Source: an uncultured Actinomycetes bacterium
Lineage (GTDB): Bacteria; Actinomycetota; Thermoleophilia; Gaiellales; Gaiellaceae
Length of the DNA: 64,000 bases
NCBI GenBank assembly: GCA_963830885.1
Contig: CAWHOA010000020.1
Location: 3,707-67,706, forward strand
Direction of reading: 5' to 3'
The notes under the pieces were generated by a model. The model was given only the letters and a program-made list of their open reading frames with translations. It was not told where the DNA came from and searched no databases. Below, piece after piece: positions 22,593-32,026 of this stretch (position 1 is the first letter of the stretch; the number at the start of each line of letters is the position of its first letter). A program made the position numbers and the translations under genes.

Positions 22593-22787
22593 ATGGAGAG
22601 GGAAGAACGCTACGAGGCGCTCCTCATCGAGGAGGCCGACGCCTGGTTCGAGTATCTCGAGGCGACCCAGGCGGAGGCCGCGACGGGGCGCTACGACGAG
22701 GTCGAGCCCTGGGCCTGGGCCCGGCTGAACCAGCGCCTGCGAGCCGTGGAGCGCAAGCGCCGGAGCCTCAGCCCAGCGGCCGCGTAG
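22593..22787 (+). CDS. 64-aa acidic helical protein (hypothetical)
   Basis: MEREERYEALLIEEADAWFEYLEATQAEAATGRYDEVEPWAWARLNQRLRAVERKRR. Strong GC3 bias. Confidence 0.55.
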   Translation: MEREERYEALLIEEADAWFEYLEATQAEAATGRYDEVEPWAWARLNQRLRAVERKRRSLSPAAA

Positions 22788-22790
22788 TTG

Positions 22791-22954
22791 GGAGGCCTCG
22801 CCGGAGCGCCGGCTGTGCCGCCGGGCCGCGCTGCTCGCCCCGAAGACTGCGTCCTCGGTCGCGCCCGTAGCCTCCGGCGACGAACGCTCCCTTCGTCCTT
22901 GTTTCGGAACGACCATCGCACCCCGACGACGAGCAACGCTCCGGCGATGCCTCC
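22791..22954 (+). repeat. ~164-nt structured intergenic repeat, copy A
   Basis: Aligns without gaps to 26186-26349 at roughly 85% identity. Terminal inverted repeats GGAGGCCTCGCCGGAGCG / CGCTCCGGCGATGCCTCC. Central hairpin CGTAGCC-TCC-GGCGACG. Confidence 0.85.
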
Positions 22955-25424: not shown

Positions 25425-25465
25425 ACTGTCTGCCGCAGCGGGCGAGGCCCGCTCGTTTCCTGTCT

Positions 25466-25936
25466 ATGAGCTACGCCGTCATCTCCATCGGGAACAAGCA
25501 GTACCGCGTGCGGGAAGGCCAGCGGCTGCTCGTGGACCGCCTGCCCCACGACGAGGGCAAGACGTTCCAGCCCGACCTGATCATGCTCGGCGGGGACGGC
25601 GACGCGAAGCTCGGCTCCGACCTCAAGGGTCAGCAGGTGACCGTCAAGGTCGCGGAGCACGTCAAGGGCAAGAAGATCATCGTCGGCAAGCACAAGCGGC
25701 GGACCGGCTACAAGCGCCGCAACGGCTTCCGCGCCAGCCTGACACGCATCGAGGTGCAGTCGATCGGCGCGACCCGGACGCGGTCCACGGCCGCGAAGAA
25801 GGAGACGGAGGCGAGCACGACCGAGGCGAAGCCGGCGGCGCCGAAGAAGCCCGCGGCGCGCAAGCCCGCGGCGGCGACAAGCGAGAAGAAGGCCCCGGCC
25901 CGCACGCGCGCGCCGAGGAAGAAGACCGAGGAGTAG
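25466..25936 (+). CDS. rplU: 50S ribosomal protein L21 with Lys/Ala/Pro-rich C-terminal extension
   Basis: [26 protein letters not shown]...[21 protein letters not shown], then [28 protein letters not shown]. Confidence 0.95.
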
Positions 25937-25938
25937 GA

Positions 25939-26184
25939 ATGGCTCACAAGAAAGGACTGGGCTCGTCGAAGAACGGCCGCGACTCCGAGTCCAAGCGGCT
26001 CGGCGTCAAGGTCTTCGACGGCCAGGACATCACCGCGGGCATGATCGTCGTCCGCCAGCGTGGCACGCGCTTCCGGCCCGGCCCGGGCACGGGTCTCGGC
26101 CGCGACCACACGATCTTCGCCACCCGCGACGGGAAGGTTTCCTTCCACACGGGCGGAGCCGGTCGGGTCATCTCGGTCCTTTAA
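25939..26184 (+). CDS. rpmA: 50S ribosomal protein L27
   Basis: [48 protein letters not shown]. Confidence 0.97.
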
Positions 26185-26185
26185 G

Positions 26186-26349
26186 GGAGGGCTCGACGAA
26201 ACGCAGCCTGTGCCGCCGGGCCGCGCTGCTCGCCCCGAGAGCTGCGTCCTCAGTCGCGCCCGTAGCCTCCGGCTACGAACGCTCCCTGCGTCCTTGTCTC
26301 GGAACGACCATCGCGCCCCGAACGCGAGCGGCGTTCCGCCGATCCCTCC
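26186..26349 (+). repeat. ~164-nt structured intergenic repeat, copy B
   Basis: GGAGGGCTCG...CGATCCCTCC arms. CCGAGA / TCTCGG helix enclosing CGTAGCC-TCC-GGCTACG. Direct repeats CTGCGTCCT. Fills the rpmA-obg spacer. Confidence 0.85.
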
Positions 26350-26355
26350 TTAGCC

Positions 26356-27513
26356 GTGTTCCATGACCGCGCGCGGATCCGCGTCAAGGGCGGGCGCGGC
26401 GGCGACGGGTCGCTCAGCTTCAGGCGCGAGAAGTTCGTGCCGAAGGGCGGCCCTGACGGAGGCGACGGCGGGCACGGCGGCGACGTCGTGATCGTGGCCG
26501 ATCCCGACCTGCGCGACCTCGGCTTCTTCCACCGCCGCAGCCGCTTCGAGGCGAAGCGCGGGCGCCACGGCGAGGGCTCGAACAAGCGCGGTCACGACGG
26601 CGAGGACGTCGAGCTCGGCGTACCGGTCGGCACACAGGTGCTCGACGAGGACGAGCGCCTTCTCGCCGACCTCGCGCACCCGGGCGCTCGCCTCGTGGCG
26701 GCGCACGGCGGCCGCGGCGGCGCGGGGAACCGCCGCTTCGCCACGCCGACGCACCAGGCGCCGCGCCTCGCCGAGCTCGGGGCGGTCGGGGAGGAGGCCG
26801 CGCTCGAGCTCCGCCTGAAGCTGCTGGCGGACGCCGCCCTCCTTGGCTTCCCCAACGCCGGCAAGTCCTCGCTCCTGCGCCGGATCTCGAACGCGAAGCC
26901 GAAGGTGGCCGAGTACCCCTTCACGACGATCGCGCCCGTCCTCGGCACCGTCGAGGCGCCGGACGGACGCCAGCTCACCGTCGCCGACGTGCCAGGCCTC
27001 CTGGAGGGGGCGAGCGAAGGCGTGGGCCTCGGCGACGAGTTCCTGGCCCACCTCGAGCGGGCGCGCCTGTTCCTGCACGTGATCGACGCTCAGGAGGACG
27101 CCGAGGCGCGCTTCCGCGCGATCGACCGCGAGCTCGCCGCCTACGGGGCGGGCCTCGCCGAGCGGCCGCAGATCGTCGTCCTCAACAAGGTCGACCTCGT
27201 CACCGAGCCGCCCCCGTTCGCCGTGGACGATCCGCGCGTCCTCGACATCGTGCACACGTCCGCGGCGACGGGCGAGGGGATCGACCGGCTGAAGACCATG
27301 CTCTTCGCGCTCGTTCCCGAGAGCGCGCCTGCCCGCGTCGACGAGCGGGAGCTGGCGGACTACCTCGTCTACCGCCCGCGCCCGCCGCAGCACCGGCGGT
27401 TTCGCATCTTCCGCACGCCGGGCGGCTACCGCGTGCGCGGCGAGGCCACCGAGGAGGAGCTCCGGGCCGCCGGGATCAAGCCCGACGCCGTCGTGGAGTT
27501 CGAGGACGCGTGA
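26356..27513 (+). CDS. obg: GTPase Obg
   Basis: MFHDRARIRVKGGRGGDGSLSFRREKFVPKGGPDGGDGGHGGDV (Obg fold) and the G domain LLGFPNAGKSSLL...DVPGLLEGAS...NKVD. Confidence 0.95.
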   Translation: MFHDRARIRVKGGRGGDGSLSFRREKFVPKGGPDGGDGGHGGDVVIVADPDLRDLGFFHRRSRFEAKRGRHGEGSNKRGHDGEDVELGVPVGTQVLDEDERLLADLAHPGARLVAAHGGRGGAGNRRFATPTHQAPRLAELGAVGEEAALELRLKLLADAALLGFPNAGKSSLLRRISNAKPKVAEYPFTTIAPVLGTVEAPDGRQLTVADVPGLLEGASEGVGLGDEFLAHLERARLFLHVIDAQEDAEARFRAIDRELAAYGAGLAERPQIVVLNKVDLVTEPPPFAVDDPRVLDIVHTSAATGEGIDRLKTMLFALVPESAPARVDERELADYLVYRPRPPQHRRFRIFRTPGGYRVRGEATEEELRAAGIKPDAVVEFEDA

Positions 27514-28530: not shown

Positions 28531-28603
28531 GGGGCCATAGCTCAGCTGGGAGAGCGCTTGGCTGGCAGCCAAGAGGTCGCGGGTTCGAATCCCGCTGGCT
28601 CCA
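28531..28603 (+). tRNA. tRNA-Ala (anticodon GGC)
   Basis: GGGGCCATAGCTCAGCTGGGAGAGCGCTTGGCTGGCAGCCAAGAGGTCGCGGGTTCGAATCCCGCTGGCTCCA. Folds as a cloverleaf with a G3:U70 pair and anticodon loop CTGGCAG. No CCA is encoded. Confidence 0.95.
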
Positions 28604-28609
28604 CTTCTC

Positions 28610-30565: not shown

Positions 30566-30742
30566 ATGCCTGCACACAAGCCCCGCAGGAGTTTCCTCGT
30601 GACCTATCTCTCCGTCACCCAGTTCGAGACGCGCCGCCGCCAGATCGAGGCCGAGCTCGAGCGCGAGCACGCGCTGGCCGCCGGCCGCGCGAGTGGTCGC
30701 GCGCCTGCGTCGTTCCGAGCAAGGCCGCAGGTAGCGCCGTAG
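30566..30742 (+). CDS. 58-aa ORF (hypothetical, possibly a gene remnant)
   Basis: MPAHKPRRSFLVTYLSVTQFETRRRQIEAELEREHALAAGR... The central 33 codons have G/C at third position in 32 cases. No SD sequence. The 3' end runs into repeat copy C. Confidence 0.25.
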   Translation: MPAHKPRRSFLVTYLSVTQFETRRRQIEAELEREHALAAGRASGRAPASFRARPQVAP

Positions 30743-30836
30743 CCGAGGCTACGGGCTGCGCCTGAGGACGCCGCTCTCGGGGCGAACGGCGCGCTCAGCG
30801 GCACAGCTCTTCATCCCGTGAGAGGTTCGAGCCGCA
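30695..30836 (-). repeat. structured intergenic repeat, copy C (diverged, opposite strand)
   Basis: The reverse complement aligns to the copy B core at roughly 80% with small indels: CTGTGCCGC...TCGCCCCGAGAGCGGCGTCCTCAG...CCGTAGCCTCGGCTACG...CTCGGAACGAC. Ends are approximate. Confidence 0.7.
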
Positions 30837-30853: not shown

Positions 30854-32026
30854 TCAGACGGCCGTGCGCAGACGCGCACGGGCCTCCCTGGAGCGCACCG
30901 TCTCGTAGGCGATCAGCGCGACGCAGACTCCGGCGACGAGCGCGACGGCGATGACCCCGTCGACCCGCGTCGCCGCCGGGATCAGCGCCGCGCAGGCCGC
31001 CGCGGCCAGACAGCGGCGGGGGTTGACGCTGCCGACGCTGCGGTAGCGGATGGCGTCGTGGCTCAGCAGGTAGAGGGCCACGCCGCCGCAGAGCGCGAAG
31101 GCCGGCACTGTCTCGAGCGGGTCGTCCACGTGCTCGAGCACCTTCTTGAGGCCGAGGGCGACGAGGACGATGCCCGCGAACATCGGGAGGTGCAGGTAGC
31201 TGAACGAGTCGCGGGCAAGCCGCGCGCGTTCGTGGCCGCGCGCCTCGACGAGCTTCCTCCGCGCGACGATCGCGACGATGTCGAAGTAGGCCCACCAGAG
31301 CGCGCAGACGAGCGCGATGCCGAGGATCGCCGCAGCGACGACGGTCGGAGTCAGCTCGATCCCGGCGGCGCCGATGCCGATGGCCACGATCGACTCGCCC
31401 AGCGCGATGATCACGATCAGGGCGTACCGCTCCGCGAAGTGCCCGGCGGAAACGACGAAGCCGCGGACGCCGAAGACGTACGGGCCCGAGTAGTCGATGG
31501 TCAGCGCGGCCAGCCAGACCGCGATCTGCACCCAGCCGTCGAGGAAGCCGGCAACGATGAGGAGCGCGGGCCCGGGAATCGCCGTCCGCGCCAGCCGGAA
31601 CGTGGCCTGCCGGACGTCGACGTGCGGCGTCGCCTCCGCGAAGAGGACGATGTGGAGCACCCGGACCGCGAAGTACGCGAGCCCGAAGAGGACGGCGTCG
31701 GTGTCGAAGGCGTGCGGGACGGCCAGCGCGGCGACGAACATCGCCGCCATCGAGCCGAACACCGCGATGCGGGCCGAGCCCTCGTTCGGGTCGATCGCGT
31801 TCGTCAGCCAGGCGTAGGCGCCCCAGGCCCACCAGAGCGCCGCCAGGATGAGCATCCCGCGCCCGATCCCCTCCCAGGTCGGGTCGTCGGACATGAACCC
31901 GGTGACCTGCGTGAGGGCAAAGACGAACACGAGGTCGAAGAAGAGCTCGAGCGGCGTGACGGGATGCTCGGACTCCTCTTCGGCCTCGACCTCAGGCTCG
32001 ATCTCCCGCGGGACCTCGGCGTCCAT
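30854..32026 (-). CDS. ltrA: low temperature requirement protein A (LtrA) family membrane protein
   Basis: VTPLELFFDLVFVFALTQV and HFAERYALIVIIALGESIV, with about 10 TM segments. Confidence 0.85.
   Translation of the reverse strand: MDAEVPREIEPEVEAEEESEHPVTPLELFFDLVFVFALTQVTGFMSDDPTWEGIGRGMLILAALWWAWGAYAWLTNAIDPNEGSARIAVFGSMAAMFVAALAVPHAFDTDAVLFGLAYFAVRVLHIVLFAEATPHVDVRQATFRLARTAIPGPALLIVAGFLDGWVQIAVWLAALTIDYSGPYVFGVRGFVVSAGHFAERYALIVIIALGESIVAIGIGAAGIELTPTVVAAAILGIALVCALWWAYFDIVAIVARRKLVEARGHERARLARDSFSYLHLPMFAGIVLVALGLKKVLEHVDDPLETVPAFALCGGVALYLLSHDAIRYRSVGSVNPRRCLAAAACAALIPAATRVDGVIAVALVAGVCVALIAYETVRSREARARLRTAV

Follow-up and report, generated by a model that had tools for sequence, protein, structure and literature searches.

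What are the three similar, apparently structured repeats of up to 164 nt that lie close to gene ends in a 64,000-nt stretch (the window in the following; 70.7% G+C) of contig CAWHOA010000020.1 from an uncultured Gaiellaceae bacterium? An earlier note, made from the letters alone, had named copies A, B and C and suggested a co-transcribed MITE (miniature inverted-repeat transposable element), a repetitive extragenic palindromic (REP) or Correia-type element, or an RNA structure in 3' untranslated regions (UTRs). The MITE suggestion stood, through terminal inverted repeats, a TA duplication, filled and empty alleles and a transposase with the same ends, whereas an RNA role in 3' UTRs was not supported. 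With a probability of about 0.9, we regard A, B and C as members of a family of non-autonomous DNA transposons (MITEs) in Gaiellales-type Actinomycetota, which is a new family of the ordinary MITE kind and not a dedicated RNA gene.

A dispersed family with inverted-repeat ends

BLASTN placed the three copies where they had been noticed and detected none beyond A, B and C in the window at E < 1e-3. Copies A and B, described as equally long and about 85% identical, aligned over 164 of 164 nt with 86.6% identity (E 3e-53), and the core of copy C, previously given as about 105 nt at about 80%, matched over approximately 100 nt (30709-30807, minus strand) with 79.6% identity to A and 86.3% to B. 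The complementarity of 17 of 18 positions between the two ends of copy A was reproduced, as were the two direct repeats (CTGCGTCCT) and the enclosing helix, which reads CCGAGA/TCTCGG in B and CCGAAG/TTTCGG in A. In contrast, the central 7-bp hairpin CGTAGCC-TCC-GGCTACG was exact in B, while A carries one mismatch (GGCGACG). Copy C is indeed related to the other two, but it belongs to another subfamily with other ends and is truncated: what is retained is part of the left end (GAACCTCTCACGGGATGAAGAG) together with the core as far as ...CTCGGAACGAC, and the right arm and right end are deleted.

An exact-pattern scan of 185,579 species-representative genomes with TCGCCCCGANNNCNGCGTCCTC, corresponding to core positions 45-66, returned at least 113 loci. 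The copy count proposed in the earlier note, performed with nhmmer in these loci, amounted to at least 82 copies, the three of the window included, in 35 assemblies (34 Gaiellales-type metagenome-assembled genomes, MAGs, and the window), which greatly exceeds a chance number. Most copies are full-length, and the elements measure 161-170 nt. The host assemblies are labeled as Gaiellaceae, Gaiellales, Thermoleophilia or "uncultured Actinomycetes" soil MAGs. Nine copies each were counted in the available fragments of the MAGs CAWKBS, CAWISL and CAVZJM. Fourteen extra copies were met by chance within 8-kb flanks, which suggests a density of approximately one copy per 45 kb in some genomes. No match was found among PLSDB plasmids (distant mode), and a scan of IMG/VR gave only three chance matches to the pattern.

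Full copies have the form cTA-GGAGGGTTTGGCGAAA...TTTCGCCAAACCCTCC-TAg, with terminal inverted repeats of about 20 nt flanked on each side by one copy of a TA duplicated inside a CTAG-like target. Among 52 full copies aligned with 30-nt flanks (cTA-GGAGGGTTTGRCGAAAYR ... YRTTYCGCCAAACCCTCC-TAg), the TA was present on the left in 31, on the right in 38 and on both sides in 24, with C before it in 22 and G after it in 33 copies. The bases outside both TAs vary independently of each other (gTA...TAg, tTA...TAa). It is therefore the 2-bp TA of a CTAG-like target that is duplicated and not 4 bp. Comparison of the joined flanks of each copy with all loci identified L058 as the empty site, with a single TA, of the copy in L096, and L029 as the empty site of a copy with type II ends (see below) in L002. 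Thereby the family has the features by which MITEs are recognized: non-coding elements below about 300 bp with terminal inverted repeats and TA duplication, occurring as dispersed copies with filled and empty alleles. An autonomous partner was found for the type I ends, which are the ends of copies A and B, on metagenome contigs and not in the MITE-bearing genomes.

This partner was detected in a scan of metagenome contigs for TA followed by a type I end, in which three positions were chosen such that the core did not match. At least 120 loci were obtained. Among the 120 listed loci, 110 matches lead into other interiors, including short derivatives of 30-190 nt, and 21 loci contain transposase homologues. 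Complete elements with the same inverted repeats and cTA...TAg flanks have lengths of 3066 bp (L248), 2346 bp (L158), 2016 bp (L201) and 2788 bp (L163). Those in L248, L158 and L163 encode complete proteins of 324-370 aa that match DDE_Tnp_1 (PF01609, E 4e-21 to 3e-25), one of the three with a DUF772 match in addition (E 9e-6), and L201 contains only fragments of the transposase gene. Judged by its domain, the partner is a PF01609 DDE enzyme of the IS5/IS1182 superfamily, with which the elements also share inverted repeats starting with GG. Some groups of the IS5 family duplicate 2-4 bp at TA-containing, CTAG-like targets. The TA duplication agrees with a MITE of the IS630/Tc1-mariner type as well, as IS630 elements duplicate a TA target on insertion (PMC2170065), but a DDE_3-type partner was not found. 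An IS630 partner, our first guess from the TA duplication, was ruled out by the PF01609 domain and by the lack of IS630 among the NCBIfam matches.

The autonomous elements also carry an open reading frame (ORF) of 250-275 aa just inside the left end, for which Pfam gave no match. The versions in L158 and L201 are similar to each other, and L248 has further long ORFs; these additional ORFs may be passenger or accessory genes. In L237 (1846-1855) and L214 (1200-1209), the next GGAGGG... end starts right after the right-hand TA, so that tandem elements share a TA. A second short family of about 187 nt (L139, L183, L194, L204, L247) combines type I ends with another interior (TAGGAGGGCTTGGCGAAACGCCGCGCATGATCACGTGCGGTGACGG...), indicating that the same ends serve several non-autonomous families.

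Stop codons and alleles in close relatives

Genes were called with a finder based on G+C content at third codon positions (GC3), which recovers the Pfam-supported genes of the window. The proximity to stop codons seen in the window proved to be a true property of the family, as in 61 of 82 listed copies the stop codon of a gene is located -3 to +5 nt from an end. Within the window, where each copy had been placed within 20 nt of the upstream stop, this holds for copy A, beginning 3 nt past the TAG of a 64-aa ORF, and for copy B, beginning 1 nt past the TAA of rpmA, whereas the homology of copy C begins 24-45 nt from the ltrA stop. The claimed co-orientation with transcription, however, was not a family property. 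In the 61 copies, the stop codon is on the 5' side only in 20, on the 3' side only in 21 and at both ends, between convergent genes, in 20, and tandem-gene contexts contain 20 sense and 13 antisense copies. The exclusively sense orientation in the window is an accident of a small sample (n = 3).

In the commonest geometry, the first G of the element is the third base of the stop codon or, on the other strand, its last C takes this position. With G as the first and C as the last base of the element, CTAG results at both junctions, and the TAG is rebuilt for genes arriving from either side. The stops abutting the elements are TAG in 66, TAA in 12 and TGA in 6 cases, against a background of 220 TAG, 227 TGA and 31 TAA. 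Outside coding sequence, and with the copies excluded, CTAG occurs 116 times in stop codons and 97 times in intergenic positions; the host genomes are about 86% coding according to the GC3-based calls and have about 70% G+C. Stop adjacency was observed in 74% of copies versus 54% expected from site availability. Most of it is explained by the CTAG preference, the loss of harmful insertions and the restoration of CTAG at either junction by the terminal G and C, and stop-codon adjacency is no evidence of a 3'-UTR function. In the Gaiellales MAG fragments (L001-L113), TAG is about as frequent a stop as TGA despite the high G+C content, and the stops of two convergent genes frequently overlap in a single CTAG.

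For the insertion sites of the window, we compared contigs that encode an L27 protein identical to that of the window (21 public contigs). Most examined contigs have approximately 97% DNA identity to the window and one (MAG CAWKBS) has 87.6%; for Obg, LtrA and the ion-channel ORF, a search for the exact protein returned no record. Site A, between the stop of the 64-aa ORF and rne, is full in the window and L127, shortened to 55 nt in L126 and L129 and to 22 nt in L125 (TTGGAGGCCTCGCCGATGCCTCC), and empty in L130 (GCC TAG GCAG) and L128 (GCG TAG GCGG). Site B, between rpmA and obg, is full in the window and L131 and shortened to 63-66 nt in L121/L129 and L124, and seven others (L117-L120, L122, L123, L132) have a 23-nt spacer reading GGAGGGCCCGACGAGGGGATCTC. 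As the first 14 nt of this spacer are the left end of the element, it represents a remnant and not a true empty site, and no empty allele of site B was seen in these contigs. Site C, between the stop of a 52-aa ORF and ltrA, is full in L136 and L137, carries a deletion of about 105 nt in the window and is empty in L133, L134 and L135 (GCC GCC TAG GCCGCAGGG). The target of copy C was the TAG of this 52-aa plus-strand ORF converging on ltrA, and the core is therefore antisense to the gene whose stop was hit. A polymorphic site between rne and rplU is filled in L133 and L135, with a spacer of 210 nt, and empty in the window, L136 and L137, with a spacer of 41 nt; no deleted allele was seen there.

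Orthologous copies are 93.9% identical (A versus L127; B versus L131), and in the flanking genes obg, rne and rplU the identity is 92.2-95.3% at third and 98-99% at first and second codon positions. Since the copies diverge at a rate similar to that of synonymous sites, resident copies drift neutrally, and they decay from the hairpin tip inwards. One in-place compensatory change distinguishes copy A of the window (CGCCGGG/CCCGACG) from that of L127 (CGCTGGG/CCCAGCG). When the genome loci were scanned for ends outside the copies, only a 21-nt remnant was found, at positions 7012-7036 of L061. This mini-hairpin, TA-GGAGGGTTTGGCGAGCCCTCC-TG, consists of both ends of one type I element fused to each other and is of the same kind as the remnants at sites A (L125) and B.

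Predicted structure, conserved core and rival explanations

The predicted folds have energies of -86.8 kcal/mol (z = -4.8) for copy A and -79.2 kcal/mol (z = -3.4) for copy B. The consensus fold is a single long hairpin whose apex is asymmetric. When it was mapped on an alignment of 71 copies, 90.2% of the cells in 58 pairs were paired versus 32-43% with partners slid. Both sides had changed in 36 pairs, and the observed values were reached by 0 of 500 shuffles, which amounts to strong covariation. The outer helix was paired in 85.9%, and the enclosing helix CCGAGA/TCTCGG covaries across the 71 copies (GC 42, GU 14, AU 12 at one pair; GC 57, AU 7, UA 3 at the next). Covariation was likewise found in the central stem (GC 45, UA 22, CG 2) and in helices inside the ends, e.g. 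CGCCGGG/CCCGGCG with the variants CGCAGGG/CCCTGCG and CGTCGGG/CCCGACG. Much of this covariation is at the level of subfamilies and shares descent. A count of G-U versus A-C combinations favored the bottom strand in the outer arm (A-C 153, G-U 73, of which 56 come from one fixed pair) and the top strand in the apical part (G-U 109, A-C 23), so that neither strand was favored throughout, with few independent events overall.

Such data raise the question whether the element is an RNA serving the host in 3' UTRs or operon spacers, as terminator, mRNA-stabilizing hairpin, RNase site or small RNA (sRNA), so that selection would keep its sequence and structure and transposition would be secondary. 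The high stability of the predicted folds (-79 to -87 kcal/mol, z = -3.4 to -4.8), the strong covariation, including helices well inside the ends, the compensatory change between copy A and L127 and the position directly past stop codons are in line with this explanation, and as a hairpin works either way, random orientation is compatible with a symmetric role. However, we consider it quite improbable. There is no orientation bias, orthologous copies diverge as fast as synonymous sites, and contigs with about 97% identity show deleted interiors or no element at sites A, B and C; owing to this rate and these deletions, a conserved host RNA role is unsupported. Intrinsic terminator function was rejected as there is no family-level signal: the family consensus lacks a T run (U-tract), and the terminator scan gave a weak match in copy A only, by virtue of a private CTTCGTC change. 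Rfam gave no family match even at E = 10, with only two tRNAs in the whole window at the gathering score and nothing relevant around copy B at E ≤ 10 (best PrrB/RsmZ, 11 bits, E = 2). A tRNA-derived core, considered because GCGCCCGTAGCTCA and GGCTACGAA resemble tRNA parts, was dismissed, since comparison with 12 tRNAs yielded just 7-10-nt matches.

Even less probable is a REPIN-like element for which a tyrosine (HUH) transposase of the RAYT or IS200/IS605 type, and not a DDE enzyme, would mobilize a hairpin of single-stranded DNA. REPINs are hairpins with compensatory changes, as is the entire element described here, and the conserved interior as well as the CTAG...CTAG junctions, which could also arise by insertion beside a fixed short motif, would be in agreement with such an origin. 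Likewise, REP and REPIN sequences with RAYT are extragenic, highly repeated and often found at gene ends or between convergent genes, but REPs have no target-site duplication and are recognized as single-strand hairpins by a Y1 transposase (PMC2817692). The TA duplication of the Gaiellales family argues against a REP-like element: its symmetric inverted repeats extend to the outermost positions and are flanked by TA left and right, only one TA is present in an empty site, and the same ends and TA flanks bound elements that encode DDE_Tnp_1. No Y1/HUH gene was seen beside any copy, although no systematic search for such genes, including RAYT, was made. A repeated short protein-coding cassette (mini-ORF) can practically be dismissed. 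Many frames are open at 70% G+C, and one frame is open in 44 of the 71 copies, but no frame is open in all of them, the lengths of 161-170 nt are spread over all three residues modulo 3, the hairpin apex varies by insertions and deletions and copies occur in both orientations relative to genes. Coding had already been judged unlikely from copies A, B and C, and the family supports this judgment.

Several observations weigh against the MITE interpretation or at least complicate it. The best NCBIfam match of the transposases, to IS1182 (E 1e-35 to 1e-42, 122-146 bits), is below the cut-off of 270, and the second, to IS5 (57-61 bits), is below the cut-off of 140. In a total of about 1.1 Mb from the Gaiellales loci, the window and its close relatives, neither a transposase gene bounded by these ends nor a homologue of the metagenomic transposases was found, and mobilization in trans in these genomes is inferred. 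In copy A (TAG-TTG before the element, A-GGG after it) and in most copies with type II or III ends, the flanks are degenerate and the TA duplication is therefore not readable. Oddly, the same core of about 120 nt occurs with at least four kinds of end, and in type I elements the arms and the center are at least as conserved as the ends (mean column identity 0.92-0.94 for arms and 0.88-0.90 for ends, with 0.69-0.80 for the hinge and 0.59 for the hairpin apex). A plain origin as a deleted insertion sequence (IS) does not predict a conserved interior with four kinds of end.

This diversity became apparent from partial hidden Markov model matches, which are complete elements with other ends. Type II ends read GAACTCGTCTCAGAATGA, type III ends GAACCCGAACCGGAACGA with altered inner arms, and elements with type IV ends (AGTGMCC...) have only the central 60 nt or so in common with the others. 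The inner half of the ends (CGRAACGNAGCC) is common to the types, and the outer 10 nt or so differ. Several types coexist in one genome, and an orthologous site can be occupied by different types or subfamilies in different genomes (L029 with type I versus L002 with type III; L015 versus L038; L061 versus L019). The conservation of the core is in part due to ascertainment, as the scan pattern was taken from core positions 45-66; the diversity of the ends is not. It is conceivable, although we consider it rather doubtful, that the invariant center (GCGUCCUC, a covarying two-part stem-loop and UCCCUGCGUCCUUG, within the core of about 120 nt) is a functional module carried by at least four kinds of transposon end. 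Such a module could be a cis site for transposition, bound by a host factor or a transposase accessory, or an RNA that makes a 164-nt untranslated insert harmless in operons, e.g. by holding stop and start codons near each other or by escaping Rho. If so, the cargo would switch between vehicles, whereas in the usual picture of a MITE the ends are conserved and the interior is free.

For the MITE family, we propose that a PF01609 (IS1182/IS5-like) DDE transposase would bind the ends of about 20 nt (GGAGGGTTTGGCGAAA) in trans and insert the element at TA, preferably in CTAG. As the junctions show, the TA is duplicated on either side, and the terminal G and C restore CTAG at both junctions and thereby a TAG stop in either direction. 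With more than half of the non-coding CTAG sites being stop codons, harmless insertions there would survive selection in either orientation. The inserted element would be co-transcribed passively and is predicted to fold as one long hairpin, with pairing arms and an asymmetric center in which two GCGUCCU repeats surround the covarying stem-loop. Resident copies then drift neutrally and lose internal sequence by deletion, leaving mini-hairpins of 21-66 nt such as those in the relatives of the window. Most likely, conservation and covariation across the family reflect the needs of recopying or of tolerance on arrival and not a service to the host.

Known systems, neighboring genes and minor observations

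Consistent with the earlier note, in which no named family was recognized, neither Rfam nor the literature that was searched yielded a description of the element. This literature contained no paper connecting MITEs with Gaiellales or Thermoleophilia, and in a review of prokaryotic MITEs from 2024 there is no mention of Actinobacteria or of stop codons. The pneumococcal repeat unit (RUP), a 107-bp MITE whose presumed mobilizing enzyme is the IS630-Spn1 transposase (Delihas review, PMC2229807), is similarly small, non-coding and multi-copy, shares terminal inverted repeats with an IS, inserts at TA with duplication and forms an end-to-end stem-loop. In contrast to the family described here, with 70% G+C, terminal G and C that rebuild TAG and same-ended elements encoding PF01609 DDE_Tnp_1, RUP is A+T-rich, not tied to stop codons and linked to the Tc1/mariner-type IS630, and there is no sequence similarity. 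Correia/NEMIS elements of Neisseria (PMC2229807) resemble the family by their length of 100-155 bp, inverted-repeat ends with TA, frequent co-transcription with neighboring genes as a long hairpin and size variants with internal deletions, but they have no identified parent transposase, and sequence and host phylum are unrelated. For Correia elements, an IHF site, promoter elements and cleavage of the RNA by RNase III were described (PMC2229807). Compared to IS5/IS1182 elements, the transposases score below both NCBIfam cut-offs, the autonomous elements are large (2.0-3.1 kb) and have extra ORFs, and the window contains only the non-autonomous derivative.

Two features of the family are noteworthy: the element restores the stop codon and the CTAG into which it lands, and its structured core is common to several kinds of end. 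By targeting TA in CTAG and by its terminal bases, it makes the stop codon a safe harbor in a compact genome of high G+C content, and insertion restores the target site and the stops of both convergent genes. The shared core with interchangeable ends deserves a targeted study. For annotation, it matters that blocks of 164 nt and remnants of 21-66 nt are present in operon spacers of uncultured soil Actinomycetota, where they can be mistaken for ORFs, for sRNAs or for conserved motifs of 3' UTRs. Contigs of about 97% identity that differ by filled, deleted and empty alleles provide ready strain markers for Gaiellales, and these alleles demonstrate that a transposon was recently active in a lineage for which hardly any genetics exists.

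Table 1. Location of elements and genes in the window and of autonomous-type elements in metagenome loci
Feature	Sequence	Position	Strand	Remarks
64-aa ORF	Window	22593..22787	+	GC3 0.92; TAG stop 22785-22787 is the insertion point of copy A
Copy A	Window	22791..22954	+	Full-length type I element, ends GGAGGCCTCGCCGGAGCG / CGCTCCGGCGATGCCTCC
Empty target site (GTCTATGAG)	Window	25462..25470	+	Overlaps rplU ATG; L133 and L135 carry a type II-like copy there
rpmA (ribosomal protein L27)	Window	25939..26184	+	Pfam PF01016; stop abuts copy B
Copy B	Window	26186..26349	+	Full-length type I element, between rpmA and obg
obg (GTPase)	Window	26356..27513	+	Pfam PF01018 and PF01926; GTG 6 nt past copy B
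Small ORF converging on ltrA	Window	30599..30742	+	AGGAG 7 nt before GTG
Copy C	Window	30709..30829	-	Truncated type II-like element
ltrA	Window	30854..32026	-	Pfam PF06772, E 4e-99
Autonomous-type element	L158	66-2411		
Autonomous-type element	L201	620-2635		
Autonomous-type element	L248	203-3268		

According to Pfam, the gene order around the copies (Table 1) is rodA, an ORF, the 64-aa ORF, copy A, rne, rplU, rpmA, copy B, obg and nadD, with ltrA followed by copy C on the other strand. The 64-aa ORF (MEREERYEALLIEEADAWFEYLEATQAEA...), located between the rodA-linked ORF and rne, has no Pfam match; it is conserved and was called as a 64-aa gene in the relatives L125-L129. The small ORF converging on ltrA corresponds to the 52-aa gene of L134, L135 and L137, which ends in the TAG hit by copy C. 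In the window, its 3' end was lost together with part of copy C, and the ORF now reads into the element.

Copy B is flanked by TTTAAG-GGAGGG...CCCTCC-TTAGCC, followed directly by the GTG start of obg, and puts 171 nt between rpmA and obg. No Shine-Dalgarno sequence is present between copy B and this GTG (26350-26358), and relatives with the 23-nt spacer (in the range L117-L123) have GAGGGG 6 nt upstream of the obg GTG. It seems from these sequences that the remnant of an old insertion supplies the ribosome-binding site of obg and that the full copy removes it. Copy B is thereby a testable case for the effect of a hairpin insert on translational coupling.

An inverted-repeat scan of the window yielded nothing IS-like. 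Between rne and rplU, just upstream of the polymorphic insertion site, there is a hairpin with a T-rich tail (AGCGGGCGAGGCCCGCT CGTTTCCTGT; 25437-25453) that is conserved among relatives; a terminator or a structure similar to an L21 leader is conceivable. Past rsfS and a tRNA-Ala gene, the region from 28531-28604 onwards varies among contigs with about 97% identity (approximately 10900-13900 in L133-L137): some contain a gene for an FAD-binding monooxygenase and one a Collar-domain gene, and the window has neither. This region looks like a variable island beside a tRNA gene.

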